In this document: piece after piece, positions 9,276 through 37,153 of the stretch
Layout: every line of letters starts with the position of its first letter
Position numbering within the stretch: position 1 is the stretch's first letter
NCBI GenBank assembly: GCA_045563025.1
Contig: JBJKUS010000005.1
Span: forward strand, 34,718-98,717
Reading direction: 5' to 3'
DNA length: 64,000 bases
Origin: Alphaproteobacteria bacterium
GTDB taxonomy: Bacteria > Pseudomonadota > Alphaproteobacteria > Methylaequorales > Methylaequoraceae
The notes under the pieces: generated by a model
Database searches by the model: none
What the model was told of the DNA's origin: nothing
The model's input: only the letters and a program-made list of their open reading frames with translations
Made by a program: the position numbers and the translations under genes

Positions 9276-9316
9276 AATATATAATATATTGATAACATAA
9301 AAAAAAAAATAGTATA

Positions 9317-9637: not shown

Positions 9638-9640
9638 TCT

Positions 9641-10423
9641 ATGAAAATTTGTTCGTGGAACATTAATTCAGTTAGGATTAGGACTGAGATGCTTGAACTA
9701 TTAGTTGAAAAACACCAACCAGAGATTATTCTTCTTCAAGAGATCAAATGTGAAAATTCTGAATTTCCAGAATTTTATAAAACCTTAAACTATAACTTAG
9801 AAGTTAATGGTCAGAAAGGTAGACATGGAGTAGCAATATTATTGAAAAAAGATCTAACTTATAAAAGGATTGATTTCGAATCGCAAATACTAAATTTAGA
9901 ATCTAGAATAAATGGGGTTTCATTTAAAAATTTGAATATAGTTAATGTTTATGTTCCAAATGGTAATCCAGTTGAAGATAAAAAAAAATTTGACTTTAAG
10001 TTAAAGTGGCTAAATGAATTAAAGAGGATTGTAGAAAGTTTTATAAATAATTATGAAAATCTTTTAGTTGCCGGAGATTTTAACGTTTTGGAAAATGAGT
10101 CTGATGTGAAAGATTTTGATAAATGGAAATTAGATGCCCTCGGAAAAATTGAAACGAGAGAGTATTTTAGAAAAATTTTAGAAAAAGGACTTTTCAACAT
10201 TGAAAGACTATTTAACAGTCCTGGCACAAATTATTCATTTTGGGATTATCAAAAAGCTTCTTGGGAAAGAAATTATGGTTTACTTATTGATCATTTTTTA
10301 GCTTCACCATTTATAATTCAAAATACTAAAAGTATTTTTTTTGATAAAGAATTTAGAGGTTTGGAAAGACCCTCTGATCATATTCCAGTAATTATTGAAA
10401 TTGAAAAGAATTTAAATATCTGA
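9641..10423 (+). CDS. xthA: exodeoxyribonuclease III (AP endonuclease)
   Basis: 260 aa; [14 protein letters not shown] at the N-terminus and SDHIPV at the C-terminus are typical of ExoIII/APE1. Confidence 0.9.
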
Positions 10424-17601: not shown

Positions 17602-17675
17602 GGTGCGGTGGCGGAGAGGCTACGCACCGGCCTGCAAAGCCGAGTACACCGGTTCGAATCCGGTCCGCACCTCCA
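17602..17675 (+). tRNA. tRNA-Cys (GCA)
   Basis: Cloverleaf read by hand: acceptor GGTGCGG/CCGCACC, anticodon stem CGGC/GCCG with loop CTGCAAA (anticodon GCA), T-arm GGTTCGAATCC, and an encoded 3' CCA. Confidence 0.9.
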
Positions 17676-17726
17676 AAAAATAAATGTTTTTACAAATTAA
17701 AAAATTAAACTATTATAGCTCTAATT

Positions 17727-17802
17727 TTCCGGCGTAGCTCAGTTGGTAGAGCAAGCGACTGTTAATCGCTGGGTCACAGGTTCGAGTCCTGTCGCCGGAG
17801 CC
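17727..17802 (+). tRNA. tRNA-Asn (GTT)
   Basis: Acceptor TCCGGCG/CGCCGGA, D-arm AGCTCAGTTGGTAGAGC, anticodon loop CTGTTAA (GTT), T-arm GGTTCGAGTCC, discriminator G, and an encoded CCA. Confidence 0.9.
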
Positions 17803-17840
17803 ATCATAATAATAAACGTTTATAAGTTATCGCAAAGTTT

Positions 17841-18767
17841 ATGGTTAAAGTCAGTTTCGTTTGTCCTATTTTTAATAAATCCAAATATTTAAAAGATGTG
17901 CTTAATGCACTTAATAAACAGACAGGAAATTTTGAAAAAGAATTCATTTTTGTCAATGACGGCTCATCAGATAATTCATTAGAATTACTCAAATCTTTGA
18001 CAAAAGGTTGGAAAAATAAAAAAATTTTAAGTCAAAAAAATAAAGGTCCAGCAAGTGCTACTCAGCGAGGCATAGATTTTTCTACTGGGGATTACATTAA
18101 ATTAGTTGGTGGAGACGATGTATTGTCGCCTAACTGTACAAAAACACTATTAGATGTTTTAAGACAAAGTAATGCTGTTGCTGTTTTTAGTCGTTACAAA
18201 TTAGTTGAAAATATAAAAAAATTTGATTTTGAAAATAAACCTCTTCAAAATTTAAGAGTTTTAAAAGATCCCCTTCAAAAAACTATCTTATCTAGTTACT
18301 CTGGAACGTCTCCTAACCTTTATTGTAGAAAAACAATTGAAAAATCTGGGGGGTGTGATCTCAGACTTTTCATTGAAGATTTTTCTTTAGTTCTTGGACT
18401 TTCAAAACTTGGAAAATTTAGTTTTATTGATAACGTCACTTCAATAGGTCCAGCTGACGATCCAAATAGAATTATGTTAGGAAAACAAACACAACTAATC
18501 CATGACTTTAACGCAGCACTTTATTATTTCTTTATTGAAAATGATTCACTGCCTAGTAATCTAAAAAAATTAGCCTGTTTAAAGGCTATCGGAAGAGCAG
18601 AAAAATGGGCCAGAAGGATTAAAAATCAATCTTTTTTTAATAAAATGAACCTTCTTAAACTTAAACTCTATATAGGTGACAAAAATTATTTAAAATTCCT
18701 TAAAATGTCATGTTTATTTTTTTACGATGACTTTAATGATGAAAAAATAAGATATAAGATTTCTTAG
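17841..18767 (+). CDS. family 2 glycosyltransferase
   Basis: 308 aa; the GT-A N-terminus (VSFVCPIFNKSKYLKDVLNALNKQT...FIFVNDGSSDNS) and DxD-like GGDD are present. Confidence 0.8.
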   Translation: MVKVSFVCPIFNKSKYLKDVLNALNKQTGNFEKEFIFVNDGSSDNSLELLKSLTKGWKNKKILSQKNKGPASATQRGIDFSTGDYIKLVGGDDVLSPNCTKTLLDVLRQSNAVAVFSRYKLVENIKKFDFENKPLQNLRVLKDPLQKTILSSYSGTSPNLYCRKTIEKSGGCDLRLFIEDFSLVLGLSKLGKFSFIDNVTSIGPADDPNRIMLGKQTQLIHDFNAALYYFFIENDSLPSNLKKLACLKAIGRAEKWARRIKNQSFFNKMNLLKLKLYIGDKNYLKFLKMSCLFFYDDFNDEKIRYKIS

Positions 18768-19559
18768 TTATTCACCTTGATTTATTAAAATTCCGTGTTT
18801 TCTTGAGGATTTTATCATCAACATAAAAAAGAGAATTGAAGAACTCAAATATAAAAAGTTAAGTAATAAAATCTTGCTTAAGTTCTTAAAGTCAATTATT
18901 TGTTCTATAAGAATCATTCTCATAGATTCAAAAACGTAAACTGGTGGAAGAAGTTGAGAAATCTTTTGCATTATTGGAGGAAGTGAATCTAACGGATAGT
19001 AAACGCAAGAAAAGGGTAATAAGATAAATATAATTGCCCAAGCCAACTCTTCAAAAGAATGACCATACCTTAGAACTAGCCCAGATACTATAAATCCTAT
19101 AGACCATCCTATGGCTATAAGATTAAAAAAAAAGAAAATCAAATAAAAACCCATTTCAAAAAGATGAAAATTAAAAAAATAATTTGCCAAAAAAACTGCT
19201 GGAGTGAGACCAACCAAAGTTCTTAATGCACTTATTATTATTAGGCTTGAAACAAGCTCATACTCTTTAAGTGGGGTAATAAATAAATTAGTTAAGTTTC
19301 TAGACCATATTTCTTCTAAAAAAGACATCGTTAAACCTAATTGTCCTCGAAATAAAACATCCCAGAGAACAACAGCAGATAAAATTATACTTAATACATT
19401 AAAAACAGAAGATGAATTATTCTGAATCAAGAAATTGCTAAAAAAACCCCAAAATAATATTTGTACAGAAGGCCAATAAAAAATACTCAATAACCTTGGA
19501 AAAGAACCAAAAGATATAGTTTTATATCTAATTATTAGTGCAAATATTCTTCCAAACAT
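18768..19559 (-). CDS. ABC-2 type exporter permease
   Basis: 263 aa with six predicted TM segments. It is translationally coupled to the ATPase (the stop/start overlap by 1 nt at 19559). Confidence 0.65.
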   Translation of the reverse strand: MFGRIFALIIRYKTISFGSFPRLLSIFYWPSVQILFWGFFSNFLIQNNSSSVFNVLSIILSAVVLWDVLFRGQLGLTMSFLEEIWSRNLTNLFITPLKEYELVSSLIIISALRTLVGLTPAVFLANYFFNFHLFEMGFYLIFFFFNLIAIGWSIGFIVSGLVLRYGHSFEELAWAIIFILLPFSCVYYPLDSLPPIMQKISQLLPPVYVFESMRMILIEQIIDFKNLSKILLLNFLYLSSSILFFMLMIKSSRKHGILINQGE

Positions 19560-20266
19560 TAGCCTTGCCCTAAAAAAAATTCTTCAAGTGAAGAATACTT
19601 GTTTTTTTGTAATAAAAATTCAAGATTACCATGCGAATCAATTTCTCCTGATTTAAGTAATATGATTTCAGAACATATACTTTGAATCTCATCTAAATTA
19701 TGAGATGTAATAATTATTGATGACTTATGTAATCTTTTATAATTAACTAAAAAATCCCTGATAAAAATTGAAGTTTCCGGATCCAATGATGCTGTTGGTT
19801 CATCAAGTAAAAGAAGTTTTGGTGTATTTAACAGTGCTTTACACAAATTTACTTTTGTTTTTTGTCCAGCAGACAAAGACCCATAATTTTTCTTTAACAA
19901 ATCATTCATTTGAAGGTTTTTAGCTAAATCATCAATAACATCTTTAAAATACATTACTCCATATAACCTAGAATAAAAAAAAAGATTTTGTTGAACAGTC
20001 ATTTTTTTTGGGAGGTCAATGTAAGGACTCTGGAAATTTATTTTTTTAAGTATTTCATTTTTATATTTTTTAAGATTTTTCCCAAAAACATTTATCTCAC
20101 CAGATGAAGGTGAAATCAGACCCATTAACATTCCTAGTAGTGTAGTTTTTCCAGCACCATTCTTTCCTAAAACTCCAACTATTGAATTATCAGTTACATT
20201 AAACGAAATATTCTTAATAATCATCTTGTTATTAAAGCTTTTAAAAAGCTTAGAAACTTTTAACAT
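19559..20266 (-). CDS. ABC transporter ATP-binding protein
   Basis: 235 aa with Walker A (GKNGAGKTT), the ABC signature (LSAGQKTKV) and Walker B (LLLLDEPTASLD). Confidence 0.9.
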   Translation of the reverse strand: MLKVSKLFKSFNNKMIIKNISFNVTDNSIVGVLGKNGAGKTTLLGMLMGLISPSSGEINVFGKNLKKYKNEILKKINFQSPYIDLPKKMTVQQNLFFYSRLYGVMYFKDVIDDLAKNLQMNDLLKKNYGSLSAGQKTKVNLCKALLNTPKLLLLDEPTASLDPETSIFIRDFLVNYKRLHKSSIIITSHNLDEIQSICSEIILLKSGEIDSHGNLEFLLQKNKYSSLEEFFLGQG

Positions 20267-20385
20267 AATACTTATGGATATTTAAATTCTATTACAATTT
20301 AACTGTTTAAATATTTATAATTTTTTATATATCATTATAAAGTAATAACATTACAATTAAAAAAAAATCTATAATTATCAATCAA

Positions 20386-21387
20386 ATGAAAAAAGTTTTA
20401 TTAAAAAAAAATTTTAATGAATGTATAGGTAACACTCCTCTTATAAAACTTAACAGGGCCTCAGAATTATCAGGAAACAACATATACGGAAAATGTGAGT
20501 TCTTGAATCCTGGAGGATCAGTGAAAGATCGACCAGCACTTCAAATAATTAAAGATGCATTAAATAAAAAAGTTATAACTAAAGGTGGAACAATTGTCGA
20601 AGGTACAGCTGGAAACACAGGTATAGGCCTATGTCTCGTAGGAAATACATTTGGTATGAAATCAGAAATTGTAATGCCAAAAACTCAGAGTGAAGAAAAA
20701 AAAAAAATGCTTCAAATTTGTGGAGCAAACCTCCACTTAGTTGAGGCAGTTCCATACAAAAATCCAAAAAATTATGTTAGGTATTCAGAAACATTAGCCA
20801 AAAGTATAAAAAATGATAATGGTGTGCTTTGGGCGAATCAATTTGACAACCTTTCAAATAAAAAAGCCCATTATACTTCAACAGGCCCAGAAATATGGAG
20901 TCAACTTGAGGGTAAAGTCGATGGCTTTATATGCTCAGTAGGAACGGGTGGGACACTTGCTGGGACATCTGAATATCTTAAAGAAAAAAATAAGAATGTT
21001 ACTATTGGACTTGCAGACCCATTTGGGTCTGCAATGTATAATTATTTTAAGAATGGAATACTTAAGTCCGAGGGCGATTCAATTACTGAAGGAATTGGTC
21101 AAGGAAGGATTACCAAAAATCTAGAGAATATAAAAATTGATGAAAGCTTTCAGATCTCGGATTTTGATGCATTACACATTGTTTTTAAAATGATTGCAGA
21201 GGAAGGTTTGATATTAGGAGGTTCTTCTGGAATCAATGTTATGGGTGCTATAATGTTAGGTAAAAAATTAGGTAAAAATAAGAATATTGTGACCATATTA
21301 TGTGATTATGGAACAAAATACGAAAGTAAAATCTTCAATAAAAAATTTTTATTAGAAAAACAATTACCTATTCCTGAATGGTTATGA
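20386..21387 (+). CDS. cysteine synthase / cystathionine beta-synthase family PLP enzyme (fold type II)
   Basis: 333 aa; contains the PLP lysine motif (NPGGSVKDRPAL) and GTGGT/SSG loops. Confidence 0.85.
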   Translation: MKKVLLKKNFNECIGNTPLIKLNRASELSGNNIYGKCEFLNPGGSVKDRPALQIIKDALNKKVITKGGTIVEGTAGNTGIGLCLVGNTFGMKSEIVMPKTQSEEKKKMLQICGANLHLVEAVPYKNPKNYVRYSETLAKSIKNDNGVLWANQFDNLSNKKAHYTSTGPEIWSQLEGKVDGFICSVGTGGTLAGTSEYLKEKNKNVTIGLADPFGSAMYNYFKNGILKSEGDSITEGIGQGRITKNLENIKIDESFQISDFDALHIVFKMIAEEGLILGGSSGINVMGAIMLGKKLGKNKNIVTILCDYGTKYESKIFNKKFLLEKQLPIPEWL

Positions 21388-22202
21388 ACAAAGAAAAAAA
21401 TAACTTAATAAGCGCTTCAGAGCTTAAAAAAAAATTAAACAATAAAAAAATAAAAATCTTGGATGCTAGATGGTTTCTAGAAGATTCGCAAAAAGGGAAA
21501 AAACTATATGATAAACTGCATATTCCTCAAGCCATTTTTTTTGATATAAACAATCTTTCTGATAAAACCTCAGACCTTCCTCATATGCTTCCTAAGAAAG
21601 AGATTTTTAAAAAATACTTAGATGAAAATGGAATATCCAAAGAAAATGAAATTATAGTTTATGATCAAATCGGTTTTTTTTCCTCAGCAAGAGTATGGTT
21701 CATTTTTAAATATTTTAGTTTTGATAAAGTAAAGATTTTAAATGAAGGTTTTTTAATGTGGGAAAAAAAAAATTATCCAACAGACAATAAAATTCATAAG
21801 AAAGAAACTACAAATAATAAACTTACTGAAAATAAAGATTTACTGGCAAACAAGGCCCTCATTGAAAAAAATATTAAAAGTAAAAATATTTTAGTTATAG
21901 ATGCAAGATCTAAAAAAAGATTTCTTGGAGTTGAAAAAGAACCAAGAAAGAATTTAAAATCTGGAAATATTCCAGGCAGCATTAATATTCCCTACTCATT
22001 ATTATCCAAAAACGGTAAATTTTTAAATTATGGAGATCTTAGTAAAGTTTTTAATACTAAACTCAATTTAAAAAAACAAAAAATTATTTGTAGTTGTGGA
22101 TCTGGTATAACTGCTTGCAATTTAATTTTTGCTTTAGATATTTTAGGTTATAATAATGTTAAACTTTACGATGGTTCTTGGGCAGAATGGGGAAAAAAAT
22201 AA
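21378..22202 (+). CDS. sseA: 3-mercaptopyruvate/thiosulfate sulfurtransferase (tandem rhodanese)
   Basis: 274 aa with two rhodanese domains and the active-site loop CSCGSGITAC. Confidence 0.85.
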   Translation: MVMNKEKNNLISASELKKKLNNKKIKILDARWFLEDSQKGKKLYDKLHIPQAIFFDINNLSDKTSDLPHMLPKKEIFKKYLDENGISKENEIIVYDQIGFFSSARVWFIFKYFSFDKVKILNEGFLMWEKKNYPTDNKIHKKETTNNKLTENKDLLANKALIEKNIKSKNILVIDARSKKRFLGVEKEPRKNLKSGNIPGSINIPYSLLSKNGKFLNYGDLSKVFNTKLNLKKQKIICSCGSGITACNLIFALDILGYNNVKLYDGSWAEWGKK

Positions 22203-23344
22203 AAACACGAATTATCCACACTGGATCAGAACCGAAAAAACACTTTGGTTCAATAAGCGACCCAATCTATAGAAACTCAACTCTTGTTTTTGAATCCTAC
22301 AAGAGGTTTATCGAAGCAAAAAAAAATCGATTCATCCTTCCTTATTACGGAAGAATTAGCACTTACTCGACAAGAAGCTTTGAAAAAGTTATCACATCGT
22401 TATATAAATCAAGGCATACTATACTTACAAGCTCAGGTTTATCAGCCATAACAATTACTCTAAAAAGTCTTTTAAAGTGTAATGATCAAATATTAGTAAC
22501 TGAAAATTGTTATGAACCTGTTTTTAATTTTTCTAAACTTGAATTATCAAGGTTTGGAATTAAAACAACTTTCTATCCAAACAACTTTAAGAAACTAGAA
22601 AATTTAATATCAAAAGAAACTAAAATTTTATATGTTGAATCTCCTAGCTCTCTCAATTATGAAGTTGAGGACTTATTAAAAATTACAAAAATTGCTAAAA
22701 AAAATAAAATTATTACTGTCATTGATAATACTTGGTCAACTTTTTTAGGCTGTAATCCTCTTGATTATAATTTTGATATAGTTATTGAATCTGCAACAAA
22801 ATATCTGTCTGGTCATTCAGATAACTTCTTAGGTATAATTACAACAAATTCAGATAATCTCTGGAAAAAAATTAAAAAAACCGCGGTATTAAATGGAGAC
22901 TTCGTTTCTTCAGAAAGCTGTTTTAATGCTATGAAAGGTTTGAAAACACTTGAGGTTCGAATGAGTAAACATAGTGACAACGCAAAGAAGATTTTTGATT
23001 ATTTGAATTCAAAGAATTCTGTCGAGCAAATAATATATTTACCTGATCCAAAAAATAAAAATCATAAACTATGGAAAAAATATCATAAAATGAGTAATGG
23101 GCTGATTACTTTTTCATTAAAAAAAAAACGTAAAATTGAATACTTCTTAGACAAATTAAGTTTATTTAAGATAGGGTTTAGTTGGGGTGGTTATGAAAGT
23201 TTAATTTTACCGTTAAATAATTTAAAACCTTCAAAAAAATTGGCGACAAATTCGAATTATTGGTTTAGAATTCATATTGGTTTAGAGGATGTTAGTGATT
23301 TAATCAATGATTTAGAAACAGCAATTAAAAATTATGAAAAATAA
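22178..23344 (+). CDS. metC: cystathionine beta-lyase (Cys/Met metabolism PLP enzyme family)
   Basis: 388 aa; the PLP lysine context ESATKYLSGHSD matches the MetC/MetB family. Confidence 0.85.
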   Translation: MGRMGKKIKTRIIHTGSEPKKHFGSISDPIYRNSTLVFESYKRFIEAKKNRFILPYYGRISTYSTRSFEKVITSLYKSRHTILTSSGLSAITITLKSLLKCNDQILVTENCYEPVFNFSKLELSRFGIKTTFYPNNFKKLENLISKETKILYVESPSSLNYEVEDLLKITKIAKKNKIITVIDNTWSTFLGCNPLDYNFDIVIESATKYLSGHSDNFLGIITTNSDNLWKKIKKTAVLNGDFVSSESCFNAMKGLKTLEVRMSKHSDNAKKIFDYLNSKNSVEQIIYLPDPKNKNHKLWKKYHKMSNGLITFSLKKKRKIEYFLDKLSLFKIGFSWGGYESLILPLNNLKPSKKLATNSNYWFRIHIGLEDVSDLINDLETAIKNYEK

Positions 23345-23639
23345 AGAAAAATTTTTAATTTTCCAACCTGCAAAATCCGCAATGCAATCCGGTCTCTTTA
23401 ATACAAATAAATGGTGTCTTTCGAATTGTGAAATGCAAGAATCATATTTAAGCAGTAAGTTTTGTTGGAACGGAAGCTCAAACCCTGAAAAAAAAATAAA
23501 AATATTTTTCAAGACCCTTGATGAAGCAAAAAAATTTGCTGAAAAGAAAAATATAAGCTTTGAGATAGTTCTTCCAGGTAAAAGAAAAATTCTAAAAAAA
23601 TCTTATTCACAAAATTTCTTCAGAAAAAAAAATGCCTAA
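23334..23639 (+). CDS. NDUFS4-like ETC complex I subunit-family protein (PF04800-type)
   Basis: 101 aa. It aligns by eye to the eukaryotic NDUFS4 core (FQPAKSAMQSGLFNTNKW ... WNGSSNP ... FKTLDEAKKFAEKKNISFEIV ... KSYSQNF, versus NDUFS4 PARNNMQSGVNNTKKW ... GWASTADP ... KEDAVSFAEKNGWSYDI ... KSYGANF). Confidence 0.75.
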   Translation: MKNKEKFLIFQPAKSAMQSGLFNTNKWCLSNCEMQESYLSSKFCWNGSSNPEKKIKIFFKTLDEAKKFAEKKNISFEIVLPGKRKILKKSYSQNFFRKKNA

Positions 23640-24132
23640 AATTGATAAATTTTGTCCCCTTTGGTTATATAAAGTTGTAATATCAGTTACTGTATATGAT
23701 TACATTGTTAGAGACGTTGCAATTTTTGTATCTACAAAAAAATTTGAAAGTTTTTTCAGTAAATACTATAAAGATTTAACTGTGGATGAAATAGAAACCG
23801 GAGCAACTTCATTTATCCAATTTTTAGGAGAAGTAAAGACAAAAGATCCCTTTTTACTGCTAAATCATTTTACATACAATCTAGTGGAAGAAACAAAAGC
23901 TAAGTTAGGAAAGCTCTTCAAAAAAGATCCATATGAAGGTGACTCTGAAAAAGAATACAGCTCAGAAGTTGCTCTAAAAGACTTTAAAGTTTTTTCATTT
24001 TCATGTAGATCTGGTTTAACAAAAAAAGCTCCTGTCGGATGGGAGATAAGAAATGAGCAAGATTTAGGTATACTAAATAAAGCAATTGAAAAAGAGTTTT
24101 CAATTGATGATATGATAGATAGTGTACTTTAA
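23632..24132 (+). CDS. hypothetical protein
   Basis: 166 aa; no recognisable motif. It is translationally coupled on both sides (8 nt and 11 nt overlaps) within the same co-directional string. Confidence 0.4.
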   Translation: MPKIDKFCPLWLYKVVISVTVYDYIVRDVAIFVSTKKFESFFSKYYKDLTVDEIETGATSFIQFLGEVKTKDPFLLLNHFTYNLVEETKAKLGKLFKKDPYEGDSEKEYSSEVALKDFKVFSFSCRSGLTKKAPVGWEIRNEQDLGILNKAIEKEFSIDDMIDSVL

Positions 24133-24922
24133 TATGAGAAATCTATTTATATTTGTATTTTTGTTTAGTTTAATATTTGAAGCTAAAACTGCTGAAAGCG
24201 ACGATTTATTAATTAGCTCAATTAAGAACGAAAAAAGAAGTGAAAAAAATATTAAAAGAGACAAATACAGAAACCCTTTTGAGACACTAACATTTTTTGA
24301 AATTGATCGGAAAAAAAAAATTTTGGAAATTTCACCCGGCGGCGGTTATTATTCAGAGATAATTTCACATTATATGAAAAAAACAAATAACTTTTTTTCA
24401 ACCGAATATCTTGTCCCACCAGTTGAAGCTGTTAGAAAAGCTCAAGAAAGATATAACAAATTCTTTGAGGAAAATAAAAAAGATTTTGGTCAGATTAATA
24501 AGATATACTTTTTAAAAAATAATAAACTAGAATTTGAAGAAAAAAACTTTGACCTAGTTCTTACATTTAGAAACACTCATAACTGGCTAGGGTCAAATTC
24601 AGCAGGAAATGTATACCAAACTATTTATGATGTAATGAACAAAGGCGGGATTTTAGGTATAGTACAACATAGAGCTGATGAAAAATCAAAATTCAATTTT
24701 AAAAATGGGTATGTTAAAGAATCATTTCTTATAAGCTTTTTAGAAGATATTGGATTTAAACTTTTAGATAAATCCGATATCAATCAAAATACAAAGGATA
24801 AGAAAGACTATAAAAATGGAGTTTGGACACTTCCGCCAAGATTGGTTCTGGGTGATCTTGATAGACAAAAATATCTGGACATTGGTGAAAGTGATAGAAT
24901 GACATTAAAATTTATAAAATAA
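24122..24922 (+). CDS. putative class I SAM-dependent methyltransferase with an N-terminal signal peptide
   Basis: 266 aa with a cleavable-looking signal (MRNLFIFVFLFSLIFEAKTA) and a Rossmann motif I-like ILEISPGGGYYSEI, followed by an acidic residue (LVLTF). Confidence 0.5.
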   Translation: MYFNMRNLFIFVFLFSLIFEAKTAESDDLLISSIKNEKRSEKNIKRDKYRNPFETLTFFEIDRKKKILEISPGGGYYSEIISHYMKKTNNFFSTEYLVPPVEAVRKAQERYNKFFEENKKDFGQINKIYFLKNNKLEFEEKNFDLVLTFRNTHNWLGSNSAGNVYQTIYDVMNKGGILGIVQHRADEKSKFNFKNGYVKESFLISFLEDIGFKLLDKSDINQNTKDKKDYKNGVWTLPPRLVLGDLDRQKYLDIGESDRMTLKFIK

Positions 24923-24923
24923 A

Positions 24924-25715
24924 GTGATACACTTCATAGTTGCTACAACCTCTGAGGCAAGACCGTTAATCGACTTTTTTAAACTAAAAAAAAAAAATTC
25001 TATTTCTAATTTTGTTTTTTTTGATAATGATGAAATCTCTCTTACTATTAGTGGAATTGGAAAAATAAACGCAGCAATGAGCGTCACGCACACCTATTAT
25101 GAATTTAACAAAATTAAAAATAATGTTTGGGTAAACTTTGGGATTGCAGGACATATTAGTCATAGTATAGGAAAAATTTTTCTTATAAATAAAATAGTTG
25201 ATAAAGAAACTAATTATAAATATTTTCCTCACATAATCAAAAACTGCAAATTAGACCAAAAAAGCTGTATAACTTACAGTGAACAAAATTTTTTTTATAA
25301 TGATGATTTATCAGATATGGAAGCTAGTGGTTTTTTTATGGCTGCAGACAAATATTCAACTAAGGAACTGATTCATTCAATAAAAATTATTTCTGACAAT
25401 AAAGAAGAAAAAATTGATTTTTCTGATAAAAAAAAATTATATGACATAATTAAACCTAATGAAAAAATGATAACTTCATACATAGAAAATATATATAAAA
25501 TTTGGAAGAAGTTTTACTTCTACAAAAAAACAATTGATGAAAAAGTAAAAAAAGTTCTTCAAAATAAAAATCTTTCATTTTATCAAAAAAAAGAATTTGC
25601 AAAAGTTTTAGAATATTACTTTCTAAATAGTGAAAAAAATTCATCTAAAACATTAGATTTTTCAAATAATTTTGCTGAAAAAATAAAATTAATTAAACGA
25701 AATCTGAAAATATGA
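24924..25715 (+). CDS. nucleoside phosphorylase/nucleosidase family 1 protein (MTA/SAH-nucleosidase-like) with a C-terminal extension
   Basis: 263 aa. The N-terminal 150 aa align to the Pfs/MTAN fold: IVATTSEARPLI (cf. IGIIGAMEEE), LTISGIGKINAAMSV (cf. KSGIGKVAAA), VNFGIAGHI (cf. NTGSAGGL), SDMEASGFFMAA (cf. VEMEATAIAHV). Confidence 0.65.
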   Translation: MIHFIVATTSEARPLIDFFKLKKKNSISNFVFFDNDEISLTISGIGKINAAMSVTHTYYEFNKIKNNVWVNFGIAGHISHSIGKIFLINKIVDKETNYKYFPHIIKNCKLDQKSCITYSEQNFFYNDDLSDMEASGFFMAADKYSTKELIHSIKIISDNKEEKIDFSDKKKLYDIIKPNEKMITSYIENIYKIWKKFYFYKKTIDEKVKKVLQNKNLSFYQKKEFAKVLEYYFLNSEKNSSKTLDFSNNFAEKIKLIKRNLKI

Positions 25716-26680
25716 AATTTGAAAATATATATATAGAGGATGAAATTAAAAGTTTGAAAAAAACAAAAAGTATTTTGAGTAGAATTAAATATAAAAATAT
25801 AATTTTTTGCGACAAATACACTGAAATATTTAATCCAAAAAATCAAAACTTTCGAATCCAAAAAATAAATCCAAATATAATTTTAGCAAAAAAATATGGA
25901 AAGTTTATTTTAAAAACACCCCCAAAATTTAATATTGGATTCAAATACAACTATTATTTTTCACATATGCTTAATTGTGTTTATGATTGTAAATATTGTT
26001 TTTTACAAGGAATGTTTAATTCAGCTAATTTTTTAGTTTTTGTTAATTATGAGGATTTTTTTAAGGAGATTGACTGTATTTTAACAAAAAATCCAAATAA
26101 GAAAATTTGTTTCTTCTCCGGTTATGATTGTGATAGTTTGGCCTTGGAGAAAATAACGAATTTTCTTAATTCTTTTTTAACTTTTTTTGAGCAAAGAAAA
26201 AACGCATTCTTAGAAGTCAGAACCAAAAGTACTAATATAGAAGTTTTCAAAAAAATTAAACCAATTAATAATGTAATCATTGCATATAGTTTGAATCCAG
26301 AAGAAATTATTCAAAAGTATGAGCAAAAAACTCCAACTTTTGCAAAAAGACTTGAAAGTTTGCACTTATTACAGAGTCTAGGTTGGAGGGTTGGTATTAG
26401 ATTTGATCCAATTTTTGTTTCACATAATAATGTTAATATTTACAATCGCTTCGTAGAAAATATTTTTTTAAAGATAAATCCAAATACCTTGCATTCAGTA
26501 ACAATTGGTGAATTTAGAATGCCGAATAATTTTCTTAACAAGATACTCAAGATTAGAACTAATGACTCACTTGAATTTTTAGAGTTGCATAATAACAAAT
26601 TAAAGAAAAAAGAGAGTTATAGTTTATTTAAGAAAAAATTAAGAACCTTTGTAAGTGCAAGAAAAATTTATGAAAATTAA
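25712..26680 (+). CDS. spore photoproduct lyase-family radical SAM protein (SplB-like DNA repair lyase)
   Basis: 322 aa. The CxxxCxxC cluster sits in the SPL context NCVYDCKYCFLQ (cf. SplB C..HC.YCYLQ). The ATGA overlap with the upstream nucleosidase gene indicates coupling. Confidence 0.75.
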   Translation: MKFENIYIEDEIKSLKKTKSILSRIKYKNIIFCDKYTEIFNPKNQNFRIQKINPNIILAKKYGKFILKTPPKFNIGFKYNYYFSHMLNCVYDCKYCFLQGMFNSANFLVFVNYEDFFKEIDCILTKNPNKKICFFSGYDCDSLALEKITNFLNSFLTFFEQRKNAFLEVRTKSTNIEVFKKIKPINNVIIAYSLNPEEIIQKYEQKTPTFAKRLESLHLLQSLGWRVGIRFDPIFVSHNNVNIYNRFVENIFLKINPNTLHSVTIGEFRMPNNFLNKILKIRTNDSLEFLELHNNKLKKKESYSLFKKKLRTFVSARKIYEN

Positions 26681-27057
26681 AACTTCTTTTGTTTTACCTC
26701 AAACTTTTTACAGTTAAATGTTAAAGAGGTAATTTTTCCATCATCATGTTTCTCAAAATTTAATACGAGCTGTCCACTATATCTTCCAATAATACCTGAA
26801 ACATCACCATTGGAATCAGGATACAAAGGTATATCTTTTGCAGTCCACGAAATATTTGAATCAGTATTTTTGAATCTATCAGCAAAAAAACTTAATCCAC
26901 CTATGTCAATTTTTTTTTTATCTGTATCAATTATTAAGAAAACATCTTTTACATCAAGACTTCGTACATCTATATAATTATTTGTACATATTAGATTTAG
27001 TTCATTTGAAAAAGAAATTTTGGGAAGAAAAAGAAGAAATAATAACAGCCTGATCAT
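26677..27057 (-). CDS. secreted hypothetical protein
   Basis: 126 aa with a signal peptide (MIRLLLFLLFLPKISFS) and two Cys; no known motif. Its stop overlaps the SPL stop, in convergent orientation. Confidence 0.4.
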   Translation of the reverse strand: MIRLLLFLLFLPKISFSNELNLICTNNYIDVRSLDVKDVFLIIDTDKKKIDIGGLSFFADRFKNTDSNISWTAKDIPLYPDSNGDVSGIIGRYSGQLVLNFEKHDDGKITSLTFNCKKFEVKQKKF

Positions 27058-27216
27058 AATTTGATAATTTCAAAAAAAAAGAAAATGTCAATTTTATTTT
27101 TATATAATTGTTATAAAGTTATTAACAAAATATAAACTTTTAATTTGAAAAAATTTTCATAAAAAGTTTTTAACTGATAATAATTTTTTTTTTTGTTAAC
27201 ATAACTTAATAAGTGT

Positions 27217-27951
27217 ATGTGGAAAAAGAAAGTTTACATAAGTGATTCCGCTCAGCCATTCAGATTAAATAGAACAAAAATTGATTTATTTTTTGATTGC
27301 GAACGTTGTTTTGTCCTTGATCAAAAATTTGGTATAAAAAGACCTTTTGGGACTCCTTTGGTAATGAATAATAAAATAGTAAATACGCTTAAGGATGAAT
27401 TAGAGATTTGCAGAGAAAAAAAACAAATTCATCCTCAAGTTTTGGAGAATAATCTGAATTATATTCCCAATAACTTTGAGCTTCTGAATGATTGGAAAAA
27501 TCCATTTAAGGGTGTAAAATATACTCACAAGAAAACTAATTTTTTACTTAATGGGACTATTGATGATGTTTGGATAAATAAAACTACAAAAAAAAACTAC
27601 TGTTTAATTATTAAAAGTACTTCAAAAAAAGAACAACTGTCATATGAGCAAATATGGTCTGGATATTGGAGGCAATTATCTTTTTATACATATCTTCTGG
27701 AAAAAAACTCAATTGAAATGTCAAAAACTGGAATTCTTGTATTTATAAAAACTTTTGACAATTCTGAAAAATTCTCCAAAAGTTTATCATTTAATTTAAG
27801 TATCTTTGAAAAAATATTAGATCTTGATTGGATTGAACCAACACTGTTAAACATACATAAGATTTTAAATAGTAACGAAATTCCAAAAAATTCAAACTAT
27901 TGTAAATATTGCAAATATTATTTTAACATTAAAAACAAAATTAATGAATAA
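27217..27951 (+). CDS. putative PD-(D/E)XK-type nuclease, Cas4/RecB-like, with four Cys (possible Fe-S or Zn site)
   Basis: 244 aa. A CERC pair lies at residues 28-31 and CKYC at 229-232. A QxxxY motif (RQLSFY) follows a candidate active-site Asp (GTIDDVW). The gene is coupled to the ligase by an 8 nt overlap. Confidence 0.45.
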   Translation: MWKKKVYISDSAQPFRLNRTKIDLFFDCERCFVLDQKFGIKRPFGTPLVMNNKIVNTLKDELEICREKKQIHPQVLENNLNYIPNNFELLNDWKNPFKGVKYTHKKTNFLLNGTIDDVWINKTTKKNYCLIIKSTSKKEQLSYEQIWSGYWRQLSFYTYLLEKNSIEMSKTGILVFIKTFDNSEKFSKSLSFNLSIFEKILDLDWIEPTLLNIHKILNSNEIPKNSNYCKYCKYYFNIKNKINE

Positions 27952-29263
27952 TGCAGAGATTATAAAACTTATTGAATCATCGAATTCAAGACTTTTTAAA
28001 GAAAATATAATTCTTGAGCAAATGAAATTGCAAAATAATATACTTTTCTCTGGTTTGTCATTAGCTTACAACAAACTACTGACCTTTGGTGTTAAGCAGC
28101 TTCCAATCTCTGATAATGATGGCACTGGAATAAATTGGTTAGAATTTAAGGAATTATGTGACCAATTAATTAAAAGAAAGCTGACCGGTCATGCTGCACG
28201 AGATAGAATCATTGAATTAAAAGATAAATCTGGGAAAGATGAATGGAATTTTTTTTATAAAAGAATTTTGCAAAAGGATATGAGATGTGGACTTTCGGAA
28301 AAAACGATTAATAATGTTGCAAAAAAAAATAATTTTGAAAATTACACAATTCCTGTTTTTTCATGTCAATTAGCGCAGGATTGTGAACTTCACAAAAAAA
28401 AGTTAAGCGGAAGAAAAATCTTAGAAGTAAAACTTGACGGAGTCAGGGCAATAACTGTTGTATACCCTAATGGTAAAATTGATATTTTCAGTAGAAATGG
28501 TAAAGAATTAAATAATTTCGACCATCTTAAAAATGAAATTAATAGATTACTAGACATAAATCTAGTTTCAAAACCTATTATTTTTGATGGTGAAATCGTG
28601 AGTGAAGACTTCCAATCATTAATGAAACAGATCCATAGAAAGAATTCATTGCAAAACAAAGATGCAAAACTTTTTATTTTTGATTTTTTACCACTTGAGG
28701 ATTTTAAAAATGGAATTTACAAAAAAACTTTTGAAGATAGAAAAAATCTTTTAAAAAAATTTTACGAAAAGTTATTTTCAGAAAGTAAACTTATCAGACT
28801 TATGGATTCATTAAGTGTAGATCTTGATACTGAAAATGGGAAAGATGAATTTAAAAAATTTAATAGTGAATCTATCATAAATGGCTATGAGGGTATAATG
28901 ATCAAAGACCCAAGCTCTTTTTATGAATGTAAAAGATCTACAACTTGGTTAAAATCAAAACCATTTATAGAAGTTTCACTAGAAGTAAAAGACTATGAAG
29001 AAGGTACCGGAAGAAATCAAGGTAAATTAGGAGCTATCATTGCTGAAGGAACTGATAACAATAAATATTTCAAAACTAATGTAGGGTCAGGTTTTTCTGA
29101 TATTCAAAGAGAAAACTTTTGGATAAAAAGAGATGAACTTATCGGGCAAATAATAGAAATTCGCGCAGACTCTGTAAGTAAGGCTCAAGACGGAAAATAT
29201 TGGAGTTTGAGATTCCCTCGTTTTAAAACGTTTAGGGGTTTTGAAAAAAAAGAAAAATTATAG
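27944..29263 (+). CDS. ATP-dependent DNA ligase
   Basis: 439 aa with nucleotidyltransferase motifs I (EVKLDGVRA), III (FDGEIV), IV (EGIMIKD) and V (WLKSKP), plus an OB-fold C-terminus. No signal peptide is present. Confidence 0.85.
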   Translation: MNNAEIIKLIESSNSRLFKENIILEQMKLQNNILFSGLSLAYNKLLTFGVKQLPISDNDGTGINWLEFKELCDQLIKRKLTGHAARDRIIELKDKSGKDEWNFFYKRILQKDMRCGLSEKTINNVAKKNNFENYTIPVFSCQLAQDCELHKKKLSGRKILEVKLDGVRAITVVYPNGKIDIFSRNGKELNNFDHLKNEINRLLDINLVSKPIIFDGEIVSEDFQSLMKQIHRKNSLQNKDAKLFIFDFLPLEDFKNGIYKKTFEDRKNLLKKFYEKLFSESKLIRLMDSLSVDLDTENGKDEFKKFNSESIINGYEGIMIKDPSSFYECKRSTTWLKSKPFIEVSLEVKDYEEGTGRNQGKLGAIIAEGTDNNKYFKTNVGSGFSDIQRENFWIKRDELIGQIIEIRADSVSKAQDGKYWSLRFPRFKTFRGFEKKEKL

Positions 29264-32532: not shown

Positions 32533-33060
32533 ATGAAATCTGTAAAAATTTTTTTGATTCTATCTATATTTTTTTTAACCCCTTTTGAAAGCTTTTCACA
32601 TGGTCCTTCTAGGCAAAAGGTTTCTGAATCAATCATAGTAAATGCTAGCGCCGAAACAGTTTGGGATATTGTAAAGAATTTTAAAGACTTTAAGTGGAAT
32701 GAAGATGTGAAAAATTGTTTAGCTACAGACAACAAGATTGGATCCGAAAGAACAATTGAATTTAACAACGGCAGTAAATTAAAGCAAAAACTAGAAAAGT
32801 TAGATGATGAAAAACTTATGATTGGTTGGAGAGTAACAGAAACAGATAATAAGATGCTCCCGGTTAATAGTTATGCAGCTAAAATTTTTATTTCATCAAA
32901 GGATGATAATACAGCTCAGGTTAAATATAAGGCTGGTTTTTATAGAGGTTTTATGGGAAATGATCCTCCCGAAGAGCTAAATGACGAAAATTCAAAGAAA
33001 AAAGTTGAAAATTTCATTAAAAAATCTCTTGACGGTTTGAAAAAATTTGCTGAGAAATAA
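32533..33060 (+). CDS. SRPBCC (START/Bet v1/polyketide-cyclase-like) family protein, secreted
   Basis: 175 aa with a signal peptide and an SRPBCC-type N-terminus (ESIIVNASAETVWDIVKNFKDFKWN). Confidence 0.65.
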   Translation: MKSVKIFLILSIFFLTPFESFSHGPSRQKVSESIIVNASAETVWDIVKNFKDFKWNEDVKNCLATDNKIGSERTIEFNNGSKLKQKLEKLDDEKLMIGWRVTETDNKMLPVNSYAAKIFISSKDDNTAQVKYKAGFYRGFMGNDPPEELNDENSKKKVENFIKKSLDGLKKFAEK

Positions 33061-34012
33061 TATCTACCTCTTTTTTTTCTTTTTTGTATTTTTAGTGTGC
33101 TCAAATGCTAACTCTAAAACAGACATAGCCATAATCACTAATCAAGAAGCCAATAAAGTTGATATTATTGATTTGAAAAATCAAAAAGTAATTTCACAAA
33201 TTCTAGTTGGTAAAAAACCTGCAGGTATCATTGTGGATTCATCTGACAATACTATTTATACTTCAAATCCTGGTAGTAATAATATTTCTCAAATCAATTT
33301 GACAAACTTTGATCAAAAATTACTGTTTGCCGGAAAAAGTCCAATGGGCATCCAACTGGAAAGAACTGAAAAAATTTTATTTGTTAGCAATTGGTTCGAA
33401 AATCAAATTTCTGTAGTTAATACATTAACAAACGAAATTATTTCAAAAATAAATGTTGGAAAGTTTCCTGCAGGAATGTATTTAACAGACGCTAATTTAC
33501 TTTTTGTTGCAATTAAAGGAGAAAATAAATTAACAGTAATAAATTCAAAATCCCTTGAAATAGTTAAAAGAATTAGTGTTGGAAAAGCGCCTTATGGAGT
33601 TTTTTCGAGTTCTGAAACAGATCTATTATTTGTCACAAATGTTCAATCAAACACAGTTTCAATTGTAAACAAAAAAACCTTAGAACTTATCAAGGAAGTT
33701 GATGTTGGAAGTTGGCCATACCAAACAGCATTTAATAAAAACACTAAATTGTTATATGTAACTAATCAAAGAGATAATAGTATTTCCATTATTGATACCA
33801 AAGAATACACAAACATCAAAACACTTTATGATGTATGTGAATATCCAGAAGGAATTGACATTAGTTACAACGAAAATTTAATTGTTGTTGCTTGTTGGTT
33901 TGAAGATAATATTATTTTACTAGATTTAAAAAATTATAATTTAATAAAAAAAATTAAGGTTTCCGGTGGTCCAAGATCATTCGGGAATTTTATTTTAGAG
34001 GGTTATGAATAA
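33047..34012 (+). CDS. YVTN-family beta-propeller repeat protein, secreted
   Basis: 321 aa with a signal peptide and about seven 40-residue repeats of the form (VGK.P.G..................YVTN......SV...). Confidence 0.7.
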   Translation: MLRNNIYLFFFFFVFLVCSNANSKTDIAIITNQEANKVDIIDLKNQKVISQILVGKKPAGIIVDSSDNTIYTSNPGSNNISQINLTNFDQKLLFAGKSPMGIQLERTEKILFVSNWFENQISVVNTLTNEIISKINVGKFPAGMYLTDANLLFVAIKGENKLTVINSKSLEIVKRISVGKAPYGVFSSSETDLLFVTNVQSNTVSIVNKKTLELIKEVDVGSWPYQTAFNKNTKLLYVTNQRDNSISIIDTKEYTNIKTLYDVCEYPEGIDISYNENLIVVACWFEDNIILLDLKNYNLIKKIKVSGGPRSFGNFILEGYE

Positions 34013-35960
34013 AGAAAAACTTAAAATAATGTCTAATGCCATTAGAGCTCTTTCAATTGATGCAATAGAAAAAGCCAACTCAGGGCATCCTGGGCTCCCT
34101 CTAGGTATGGCAGATGTTGCAACAGTATTGTTCTCAAAGTTTCTTAAATTTGATCCCTCTAAACCTGATTGGCTAGATAGGGATAGGTTTGTTTTATCAG
34201 CAGGTCATGGCTCAATGCTACTTTACGCTTTATCTTACTTAGTTGGTTATAAAGATTGCTCATTAAATCAACTCAAAAATTTTAGACAACTTGGGAGTAA
34301 AACAGCCGGGCATCCTGAATTTGGTTTACTAAAAAGTATTGAAACAACAACAGGACCACTTGGTCAAGGATTAGCAAATGCTGTTGGGATGGCAATCTCT
34401 GAGAAAGTACTAAATCAAAAATACGGTAATATTTTTAATCATAAGACTTGGGTAATTGCTGGGGATGGTTGTCTAATGGAGGGAATCTCACAAGAAGCTA
34501 TATCAATGGCAGGTCACTTAAAATTAAAAAATTTAATAGTTTTTTTTGATGATAATAAAATCTCAATCGATGGACCAACAAATCTTACTTGTTCGGATAA
34601 TCAAAAAGAAAGGTTTGAAGCATCTAACTGGCATACCATTGAAATTAATGGTCATTCATTTAAAGAAATAGAAAAAGGTATCAATGAAGCTTTAAAATCA
34701 TCAAAACCATCACTTATCATTTGCAGAACCATTATTGGTTTTGGATCACCTAATAAATCAGGTAAAGAAACAGTTCACGGCGCTCCATTAGGAGCTGAAG
34801 AGTTAAAACTTACAAAAAAAAGGCTTGATTGGCCATATGAAAGTTTTTTTATTCCAAATATAATTATCAAAAATTGGAGAAAAATTGGAATTAATGGGAA
34901 AAAAAAAAGATTAAATTGGGAAAAAAAGTACAATAGCTCGAAACATTTTTTGGAAATAAAAAAACAATTTAAACAAAGAAAAGTTACTCGAGACAATAAT
35001 TCAATAAGTTTTCTATCAAATATTCTTAAAAATAAAAAAGATGAAGCTACAAGGAAATCATCTCTAAATTCTCTTGAATTTTTTTCTTCAAAAATTGAAA
35101 ATTTTATGGGAGGCTCAGCAGATCTTACTGGCTCAAATTTGACTAAAACAAAAAATTCTAGAACAAATAAAAACATAAATTATATTCATTATGGTGTAAG
35201 AGAGCATTTAATGGCTGCCGCAATGAATGGCATTGCAGTACACGGAGGGTTTATTCCATATGGAGGGACTTTTTTAGTTTTTTCGGATTATTGTAAAAAC
35301 GCAATAAGACTCTCTGCAATGATGAAACAACAAGTGATTTATGTGTTTACACATGATTCAATTGGTTTAGGAGAAGATGGTCCCACTCATCAACCTATAG
35401 AACATTTAGTAGCACTTAGATCAATTCCAGGACTTACAGTTTTAAGACCAAGCGATGCAATAGAAACCTTTGAGGCATGGGAAATCGCCTTAAATAACTT
35501 CAGTGGACCAAGTGCAATTATTTTAACAAGACAAAACCTTCCTCTGATAAGAAATAATTTCAAAAATAATGAATCAATAAAAGGCGGATATCTAATTAAG
35601 TCAAATACAAATTCAAAATTTACAATTCTTTCCACGGGATCAGAAGTAAGTTTAGGGCTTGAAGTATTAAACCATATAAAACAAAAATTTAATATTGAAT
35701 CAAATTTAGTTTCTATGCCTTCCCTTGAACTTTTTGACAATCAAAATAAAAGTTATCAAAAAAAAATTTTAGGTAATAAACCCAAAATTGTTATCGAGGC
35801 AGCATCCGGACATAGTTGGTATAAGTATCTTGAACAAAAAGATTTAATTGTTTGTATTGATAAGTTTGGTGAATCTGGGAAAGCAAAGGATCTTTATAAT
35901 TACTTTGGTTTTAATTGTAAAAATATAGTAGAATTAATTAAAAAAAACAATTTTTTGTGA
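34005..35960 (+). CDS. tkt: transketolase
   Basis: 651 aa with the TPP-binding motifs (ANSGHPG, GDGCLMEG) and pyrimidine-binding and C-terminal domains. Confidence 0.95.
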   Translation: MNKEKLKIMSNAIRALSIDAIEKANSGHPGLPLGMADVATVLFSKFLKFDPSKPDWLDRDRFVLSAGHGSMLLYALSYLVGYKDCSLNQLKNFRQLGSKTAGHPEFGLLKSIETTTGPLGQGLANAVGMAISEKVLNQKYGNIFNHKTWVIAGDGCLMEGISQEAISMAGHLKLKNLIVFFDDNKISIDGPTNLTCSDNQKERFEASNWHTIEINGHSFKEIEKGINEALKSSKPSLIICRTIIGFGSPNKSGKETVHGAPLGAEELKLTKKRLDWPYESFFIPNIIIKNWRKIGINGKKKRLNWEKKYNSSKHFLEIKKQFKQRKVTRDNNSISFLSNILKNKKDEATRKSSLNSLEFFSSKIENFMGGSADLTGSNLTKTKNSRTNKNINYIHYGVREHLMAAAMNGIAVHGGFIPYGGTFLVFSDYCKNAIRLSAMMKQQVIYVFTHDSIGLGEDGPTHQPIEHLVALRSIPGLTVLRPSDAIETFEAWEIALNNFSGPSAIILTRQNLPLIRNNFKNNESIKGGYLIKSNTNSKFTILSTGSEVSLGLEVLNHIKQKFNIESNLVSMPSLELFDNQNKSYQKKILGNKPKIVIEAASGHSWYKYLEQKDLIVCIDKFGESGKAKDLYNYFGFNCKNIVELIKKNNFL

Positions 35961-37144: not shown

Positions 37145-37153
37145 AGACAAAGT

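Follow-up and report, generated by a model that had tools for sequence, protein, structure and literature searches.

Do genes that lie head to tail in a very compact genome also work together? The question is raised by a string of eight open reading frames (ORFs), here called g1 to g8, on the + strand of a 64,000-nucleotide (nt) stretch of contig JBJKUS010000005.1 from an Alphaproteobacteria bacterium (GenBank assembly GCA_045563025.1). The whole stretch is referred to as the window, and all coordinates are those of the window, in which the string spans 20386–26680. The string encodes a cysteine synthase (g1), a rhodanese-type sulfurtransferase (g2), a MetC-like enzyme (g3), an NDUFS4-type protein (g4), an uncharacterised protein (g5), a methyltransferase-fold protein (g6), a nucleosidase (g7) and a radical S-adenosylmethionine (SAM) enzyme with the fold of spore photoproduct lyase (SPL) (g8). 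An earlier note on this DNA had proposed that these genes form one dedicated operon, which joins the supply of cysteine, homocysteine and methionine (SAM) to SAM consumers and to the disposal of their by-products. Our analysis suggests that the string is likely a composite of independent modules packed together by genome streamlining, in which g7 and g8 are the sole true functional couple and g7 would clear the 5'-deoxyadenosine left by g8.

Packing and gene order inside and outside the clade

The layout described in the earlier note was borne out. The eight genes are co-directional and overlap-coupled, with junctions of −25 to +1 nt (−10, −25, −11, −8, −11, +1 and −4 nt when the longest-ORF starts are used). 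Independent gene calls for a close relative (locus L083, nucleosidase 88% identical), which match the ATG of g3 at 22187 and the ATG of g6 at 24134, give junctions of −10, −16, −11, −8, +1, +1 and −4 nt, and every junction is 2 nt or less under either set of starts. Junctions this short leave signals no space except inside coding sequence. Gene calls in L083 and L084, as well as the public record, back the 385-amino-acid (aa) form of g3. The eight gene identities proposed earlier also all hold when family models, solved relatives and folds are compared.

Packing of this kind is common in the window. Modelled simply by its ORFs, the window is 95.7% coding, with a median same-strand junction of −4 nt and 33 of its 50 same-strand junctions at 2 nt or below; convergent pairs overlap too. 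When the observed junction types were shuffled, a run of seven or more tight junctions arose in 18% of trials. With the threshold set at 10 nt, a second eight-gene array appears on the + strand at 32533–42832, encoding in order an SRPBCC protein, a beta-propeller protein, transketolase, phosphoglycerate kinase (PGK), a class I aldolase, ribulose-phosphate epimerase (rpe), an HlyD-type membrane-fusion protein and an AcrB-type resistance-nodulation-division (RND) pump; rpe and the HlyD/AcrB efflux pump are joined by a 4-nt overlap. This array serves as an internal control, and shows that tight junctions here link coherent modules to unrelated ones. The packing of the string is not beyond chance for this genome, and g1 to g8 lie head to tail because nearly all genes of this 96%-coding genome do.

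Gene order was compared across 12 related loci, whose SPL-like proteins are 52–91% identical. The order of the string is not unique to one genome: all eight genes are present in order in eight loci (L003, L004, L005, L007 and L083–L086), and three more (L001, L006 and L008), which are cut by contig ends, agree as far as they reach. Conservation extends well beyond the string. In L003, L004 and L007 all 19 tested genes are collinear on both strands, and the gene tables of L001 and L083–L086 agree; the 19 comprise a family 2 glycosyltransferase (GT2) gene, a − strand ABC-2 pair, g1 to g8, a 126-aa gene, a Cas4-like nuclease gene, an ATP-dependent ligase gene and an MMPL gene, and continue onward to transketolase. 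The remaining locus, L056 (6467–10978; metagenome-assembled genome (MAG) MED657), is a more distant relative from which g3 and g5 are cleanly absent, with the other six genes and the flanks in order and all junctions 19 nt or less. The most uniform junction of the string is that between g7 and g8, an ATGA overlap (−4 nt) found in the window and in six of eight relatives.

The window and its relatives appear to belong to SAR11, judging from a GC content of 28%, the coding density and the synteny with marine loci from single-amplified genomes (SAGs) and MAGs. Ten window proteins were looked up, six of them from the string, and each has an identical entry in the MAG alpha proteobacterium MED-G10, which NCBI places in unclassified Alphaproteobacteria; the accessions of the six fall within PDH56851–PDH56858. 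SAR11 genomes are reported to mark the upper extreme of gene-order conservation, 96% of metagenomic fragments being collinear with HTCC1062 (PMC3448164), and conservation within the clade therefore says little about function.

Loci outside the clade are more informative. A scan of one genome per species yielded 74 further loci with an SPL-like homologue; the loci compared are the best 80 of at least 584 candidates, and Methylococcales are over-represented among them. None of g1 to g5 was found near the SPL-like gene in any of these 74 loci. A g7-type nucleosidase gene lies directly upstream of the SPL-like gene, in the same direction, in 24 of the 74, which come from Gammaproteobacteria (including Arenicellales), other Alphaproteobacteria, Opitutaceae and Acidobacteriota (including Thermoanaerobaculia). 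A short-chain dehydrogenase/reductase (SDR) gene adjoins the SPL-like gene in 49 loci, mostly directly downstream, and a GT2 gene lies upstream of the nucleosidase gene in 16; the GT2 and SDR matches are generic and under every cut-off. Starting instead from the nucleosidase recovered a locus in which it overlaps the SPL-like gene with an SDR gene nearby (L087), and a Nitrospiria locus (L088; 4138–5840) in which a GT2 gene overlaps the gene for the nucleosidase, which is of the methylthioadenosine/S-adenosylhomocysteine nucleosidase (MTAN) type, by 4 nt and the SPL-like gene follows 4 kb downstream. The most distant nucleosidase homologue, on a contig whose protein is named as epsilonproteobacterial, comes after metK and a ferredoxin gene and has no SPL-like gene. 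Because the adjacency and direction of g7 and g8 persist across phyla, this pair alone is a demonstrable functional unit within the string.

A recurrent set of four genes, for GT2, MTAN-type nucleosidase, SPL-fold radical-SAM protein and SDR, was seen in L014, L039, L041, L050, L053, L058, L072 and L079 (at about 8000–12000). The set occurs in Gammaproteobacteria and Alphaproteobacteria; Nitrospiria, Opitutaceae and Acidobacteriota have it in part. Naming its GT2 an arsenosugar biosynthesis glycosyltransferase was rejected, the match being under cut-off and no better than those of other generic GT2 models. The GT2 of the window (17841–18767) was likewise rejected as an orthologue, its similarity being no more than generic (about 30% over about 100 aa), and the window has no SDR of this cluster. 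An apparent 630-aa nucleosidase–SPL fusion in L010 was dismissed by frame arithmetic: the long ORF arises where the SPL frame of this high-GC genome stays open upstream, and the nucleosidase match is in another frame.

The nucleosidase and the SPL-fold radical-SAM protein

Family models match g7 weakly. Its scores against PNP_UDP_1, futalosine hydrolase and MTAN models are all under cut-off (25 bits against 169 for the MtnN equivalog, and 30 against 125 for another nucleosidase equivalog), and futalosine hydrolase is among the best NCBIfam matches of its family members. The AlphaFold model of g7 has a predicted local distance difference test (pLDDT) score of 92, and in a Foldseek search of the PDB all its top matches were methylthioadenosine (MTA)/S-adenosylhomocysteine (SAH) nucleosidases or futalosine hydrolase (E about 1e-12). 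E11, M132-E133 and S157-D158 are invariant across 27 sequences of the family; we match these to the catalytic residues E12, M173-E174 and S196-D197 in the MTAN of E. coli. In the model a C-terminal extension of three helices (residues about 169–263, some 95 residues) is particular to the g7 family.

Among solved structures, SPL is the only close relative of g8. It matches PF20903 with 62 bits, the SPL equivalog TIGR04070 with 85.4 bits against a cut-off of 400, and TIGR03886 with 32 against 438; a profile search of the PDB returned SPL only (E 2.6e-21). The AlphaFold model (pLDDT 83.5) aligns over its full length with SPL (4FHC) at a template modelling (TM) score of 0.65–0.68, and the next match, DesII, reaches a TM score of 0.38. 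Conserved residues include C89, C93 and C96 (CX3CX2C), Y95 (Tyr96 of SPL), and K172 and S193, the equivalents of the SAM-binding Lys174 and Ser195. A family-invariant cysteine, C140, lies two alignment positions from the hydrogen donor Cys140 of SPL. The position of SPL Tyr98 is occupied by Phe in g8, and by Phe or Tyr across the family. The region of the SPL beta-hairpin (R304/Y305) together with K309 is gapped in g8 and unconserved in the family, and AlphaFold places helices there. In SPL the R304/Y305 hairpin recognises and flips the DNA lesion and K309 binds phosphate, and roles have been assigned to Cys140 and Tyr98 (PMC3467042).

Judged from its sequence, g8 is not an SPL orthologue. The earlier note had counted it among repair functions, a label that the lost hairpin and the SPL score of 85 against 400 speak against. 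It probably performs an SPL-style hydrogen abstraction on a substrate other than a duplex-DNA lesion. Judged from their taxon names, the hosts of the g8 family presumably include no known spore formers.

We propose that the string is an array of at least four functionally independent modules, which may plausibly be co-transcribed, at least in part, from the 119-nt gap that precedes g1. One module would serve sulfur amino acids, with the cysteine synthase, the 3-mercaptopyruvate-sulfurtransferase-like rhodanese and the MetC-like lyase; another would hold the NDUFS4-type complex I accessory protein and the 166-aa g5; a third would consist of the methyltransferase-fold g6, probably exported; and the last would couple the MTAN-type nucleosidase g7 to the SPL-fold radical-SAM g8. 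In this last module g8 would bind a [4Fe-4S] cluster through C89, C93 and C96 and cleave SAM to give a 5'-deoxyadenosyl radical, which would abstract hydrogen from a substrate that is probably no duplex-DNA lesion. The inhibitory 5'-deoxyadenosine, and perhaps MTA or SAH, would then be hydrolysed by g7 to adenine and a sugar, and the ATGA overlap would keep the two proteins co-expressed.

The remaining genes and the borders of the string

The first three genes encode recognisable sulfur enzymes. g1 matches PF00291 with 229 bits and exceeds the cut-off of the 'cysteine synthase A' model NF007989 (501 bits against 387). Its best solved relatives are the 'cysteine synthase' entries 5JIS, 5I7W and 5JJC (about 400–407 bits), presumably Brucella enzymes, and cystathionine beta-synthase (CBS) entries score about 190 bits. 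The sequence holds the SVKDR motif of the lysine that binds pyridoxal phosphate (PLP), and it is identical to PDH56851.1, 'cysteine synthase A', of MED-G10. g2 matches PF00581 in two stretches and reaches 222 bits in the 3-mercaptopyruvate sulfurtransferase (MST) model NF008557, just under the cut-off of 250; its active-site loop reads CGSGITA, which we assign to the MST type, and its homologues carry the names thiosulfate or 3-mercaptopyruvate sulfurtransferase. g3 matches PF01053 with 324 bits. Its best NCBIfam models are all cystathionine beta-lyase, under their cut-offs (300 against 655; 292 against 366), and gamma-lyase models score lower and far under theirs. Among solved structures it is closest to chain 1CL1, a cystathionine beta-lyase (215 bits) that we take to be the E. 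coli enzyme.

The two genes that follow break this theme. g4 scores 72 bits in PF04800 against a cut-off of 31.9, is annotated 'oxidoreductase' in the public MAG, and is without a link to sulfur or SAM chemistry. g5 gave no match in Pfam, NCBIfam, PADLOC or the PDB, the last also with a 32-sequence profile, and distant members of its family gave no Pfam match either. This family comprises 104 representative clusters at E ≤ 1e-3, all of about 160–170 aa, with P9 and W137 invariant and a CPxW motif near the N-terminus. A reading of g5 to g8 as a defence system was rejected, PADLOC giving no match.

g6 carries the public annotation 'methyltransferase'. Its match to Methyltransf_11 is weak and under cut-off (E 0.0064), and a profile search of the PDB gave weak methyltransferase matches (E about 1e-3). 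A basic and then hydrophobic, signal-peptide-like N-terminus is present in g6 and in every homologue examined, including those of Methylococcaceae. From these N-termini g6 is probably exported, with its catalytic domain outside the cytoplasm, and such a location fits poorly with a role as SAM consumer.

A signal-peptide-like N-terminus is odd for a SAM-dependent enzyme, and recurs across the g6 family (for example at 12827–13636 of L042). The gene that precedes the g6 homologue in Methylococcaceae has a product that resembles DsbB on visual inspection. Membership of g6 in the g7–g8 module was considered and rejected: homologues lie 2–9 kb downstream of the SPL-like gene in seven loci, six of them in named Methylococcales-type taxa, and this proximity is weak evidence because it is probably the synteny of one lineage.

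Table 1. Position of the string, its genes and its borders in the window.
Feature	Position	Strand	Remark
AT-rich divergent intergenic gap, 119 nt	20267..20385	none	from gap size and sequence
g1, cysteine synthase A, O-acetylserine sulfhydrylase family, 333 aa	20386..21387	+	
g2, two-domain rhodanese, 3-mercaptopyruvate sulfurtransferase-like (sseA-like), 274 aa	21378..22202	+	
g3, Cys/Met-metabolism PLP enzyme closest to MetC, 385 aa	22187..23344	+	longest ORF from TTG 22178
g4, NDUFS4-type small protein, complex I accessory subunit family, 101 aa	23334..23639	+	
g5, uncharacterised protein, 166 aa	23632..24132	+	
g6, class-I methyltransferase-fold protein, signal-peptide-like N-terminus, 262 aa	24134..24922	+	alternative GTG start 24122
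g7, MTA/SAH-nucleosidase-type (MTAN) hydrolase, 263 aa, GTG start	24924..25715	+	
g8, radical-SAM enzyme, SPL fold family, 322 aa	25712..26680	+	
Convergent gene, 126 aa, signal-peptide-like N-terminus	26677..27057	−	3' boundary of the string

The 119-nt gap is the sole sizeable non-coding stretch bordering the string, and is likely the promoter region for both g1 and the opposite-strand ABC-2 transporter. It is little conserved when aligned across relatives. A promoter scan gave 58 matches against 47 ± 8 expected, some of them in the gap, but scans for promoters and terminators alike are uninformative in 72% AT DNA. A search for riboswitches and leaders with Rfam gave no match at gathering score in the window and none at E ≤ 1 in 20150–27250, and no intrinsic-terminator-like site was found on the + strand within the string. 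At the other end, the 126-aa − strand gene overlaps the stop of g8 by 4 nt and keeps its position in all related loci; its protein gave no family match in Pfam, NCBIfam or PADLOC.

Upstream of the gap, 17602–20266 holds tRNA-Cys(GCA) and tRNA-Asn, then the GT2 gene (17841–18767), then an opposite-strand ABC-2 permease/ATPase pair (18768–20266). The GT2 gene and the ABC-2 pair look like a glycan-export set. An NAD-dependent epimerase/dehydratase gene lies upstream of GT2 in L084–L086, and in L007 (3696–4652) about 950 nt of extra sequence separate the ABC transporter from the cysteine synthase gene, compared with the 119 nt of the window. Downstream of the string, on the + strand at 27217–29263, a gene for a Cas4-like PD-(D/E)XK nuclease (244 aa) overlaps by 8 nt a gene for a 439-aa ATP-dependent DNA ligase (ligase_A_M and OB_2 domains). 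Every related locus retains both genes, which lie outside any CRISPR context; the two may act together in repair or DNA processing.

Alternative readings and comparison with known systems

The dedicated sulfur/SAM operon of the earlier note, as a functional analogue of B. subtilis yrrT-mtnN-mccA-mccB, is in our view unlikely. Part of that proposal stands: co-directional genes, junctions of 2 nt or less and the lack of a terminator-like site on the + strand are all consistent with one transcription unit, the order is complete in eight related loci, the intact MTAN-type active site of g7 could act on SAH, MTA or 5'-deoxyadenosine, and a comparable operon has been described (PMC2566862). The functional unit, in which methionine and SAM supply is coupled to SAM consumers, is not supported. 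The flanks, including opposite-strand genes, are kept equally well; metC (g3) and g5 are dropped in L056; and outside the clade g7 and g8 accompany SDR and GT2 genes, never sulfur genes, the g7-to-g8 adjacency being all of the string that survives there. g4 and g5 are off theme and g6 looks exported, while g1 matches O-acetylserine sulfhydrylase better than an MccA-type synthase, g3 matches beta-lyase and not gamma-lyase, and g7 reaches 25 of the 169 bits for MtnN. The string shows no S-box, T-box or SAM riboswitch. For cultured Pelagibacter, a study reported that sulfur limitation does not induce cysK, cysE or metC, and left the origin of cystathionine unclear (PMC5069961). Several observations weigh against the composite that we prefer. 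The seven tight junctions form the longest run in the window at the 2-nt threshold. Gene order is held down to 52% identity of the SPL-like protein, as a real operon would also show. The linkage of g1, g2 and g3 was seen within the clade: the 120 best sseA-like homologues have 47% identity or more, and the three on long contigs whose surroundings were viewed are SAR11-type loci of the same layout. Three adjoining sulfur genes followed by three adjoining SAM-related folds make a suggestive pattern, and the Firmicute operon shows that a methyltransferase, a nucleosidase and Cys/Met enzymes can be co-regulated (PMC2566862). As for by-product removal, the Methylococcales-type loci have the SPL-like and SDR genes without an adjacent nucleosidase, and the removal of 5'-deoxyadenosine by g7 is a step that we infer.

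The partners of g7 and g8 in other phyla raise another reading, a pathway of adenosylation, which we consider quite unlikely. Here g8 would add the 5'-deoxyadenosyl radical to an unsaturated substrate and g7 would remove adenine, leaving a ribose-derived extension that SDR and GT2, which flank the pair elsewhere in at least four phyla, would reduce and glycosylate. A nucleosidase of the PNP_UDP_1 superfamily adjoins the radical-SAM gene throughout the SAR11-type loci, the window included, and also in 24 of the 74 others; GT2 and SDR genes recur in the 16 and 49 loci noted above; futalosine hydrolase is among the best NCBIfam matches of the g7 family; and the gene set resembles HpnH/HpnG/HpnI of hopanoid side chains, and MqnE (PMC13459092). 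However, g8 resembles SPL alone, a hydrogen-abstracting lyase, keeps the Tyr96 equivalent and a Cys near the hydrogen-donor position, and has no similarity to the HpnH or MqnE families in NCBIfam. The generic, sub-cut-off GT2 and SDR matches, the Methylococcales loci that have SPL-like and SDR genes with no adjacent nucleosidase, and a SAR11 string with no SDR or orthologous GT2 nearby likewise speak against this pathway. The public annotation of g8, 'DNA photolyase', points to a third reading, a genuine lyase for UV or radical lesions in DNA, with the downstream Cas4-like nuclease and ATP-dependent ligase as its repair neighbourhood; this we regard as very unlikely. The SPL fold and the SAM-binding residues agree with it, as do the nuclease and ligase genes 0.5 kb downstream in all related loci, and some COG1533 splB homologues, not necessarily of the g8 subfamily, are LexA-regulated in several phyla (PMC4951493). 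Against it, the R304/Y305 hairpin and K309 are deleted or unconserved, and g8 reaches 85 bits of the 400 set for the SPL equivalog; the nuclease and ligase lie beyond an opposite-strand gene and a 159-nt gap, and outside the clade no locus showed either of them near the SPL-like gene; and the conserved partners elsewhere are the nucleosidase, SDR and GT2.

A sulfur/SAM super-operon, if true, would be a neat metabolic coupling in the ocean's most abundant heterotroph, and adenosylation, if true, would be a further example beside HpnH/HpnG, MqnE/MqnB and ArsS, on a different radical-SAM scaffold. MqnB is the partner of MqnE, and ArsS acts in arsenosugars. The composite that we favour carries a more general point: where genomes are streamlined, genes adjoin, overlap and keep their order within a clade too often for this to imply shared function, and operon-style inference needs an outgroup test. 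The g7–g8 pair is a modest lead. Its genes are routinely annotated 'hypothetical' and 'DNA photolyase', and identification of the substrate would correct a widespread annotation; the pair might also reveal a housekeeping radical-SAM reaction retained even by a minimal genome.

Among the closest known systems to the whole string are the methionine-to-cysteine operons of Firmicutes. The B. subtilis yrrT-mtnN-mccA-mccB-yrhC operon encodes a SAM methyltransferase, an SAH nucleosidase, cystathionine beta-synthase and cystathionine gamma-lyase, and the related ubiG-mccB-mccA operon of C. acetobutylicum encodes the methyltransferase, lyase and synthase without the nucleosidase (PMC2566862). The earlier note had regarded its arrangement as undescribed; a methyltransferase/nucleosidase/Cys-Met operon was already known, and the idea makes biological sense, but the string is homologous to neither of these two. 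Like them, it has a co-directional methyltransferase-like gene, a PLP enzyme of the cysteine-synthase fold and a PLP enzyme of the Cys/Met gamma-family, and it shares an MTAN-type nucleosidase with the B. subtilis operon. It differs in that g1 is closest to O-acetylserine sulfhydrylase, although its substrate preference is unreadable from sequence; g3 is nearest beta-lyase and not the MccB gamma-lyase; g7 belongs to a distinct MTAN subfamily tied to g8; and g6 appears exported. NDUFS4 and g5 are interposed, and Rfam gave no T-box, S-box or SAM riboswitch.

As an array, the string is typical of SAR11 (Pelagibacterales), with about 96% coding sequence, overlapping or abutting genes, about 28% GC and deep conservation of order (PMC3448164, PMC6018831), although g1 to g8 are not known to have been discussed as a unit. 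The sulfurtransferase gene is unevenly spread over SAR11 genomes (PMC6018831).

At the level of the pair, g7 shares its fold and the invariant Glu, Met-Glu and Ser-Asp with MtnN (Pfs) and MqnB, but lies far under the equivalog cut-offs, carries the C-terminal extension and is coupled to one radical-SAM gene. In known adenosylation systems, the side chains of hopanoids are built with HpnH (radical SAM), HpnG (nucleosidase) and HpnI (GT2), and menaquinone with MqnE (PMC13459092). The pair resembles HpnH-HpnG(-HpnI) and MqnE in having a nucleosidase gene beside the radical-SAM gene, with GT2 and reductase-type genes clustered in other phyla. Unlike HpnH, MqnE and ArsS, g8 has the unrelated SPL fold, no adenosylated product is known for it, and the SAR11 string has no GT2/SDR. 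With SplB of Geobacillus and Bacillus (4FHC), g8 has in common the fold, the CX3CX2C motif, the Tyr96, Lys174 and Ser195 equivalents and an invariant Cys near Cys140; it departs from SplB in its equivalog score, in the Phe at the Tyr98 position, in the loss of the hairpin and K309, and in keeping company with a nucleosidase, an SDR and a GT2.

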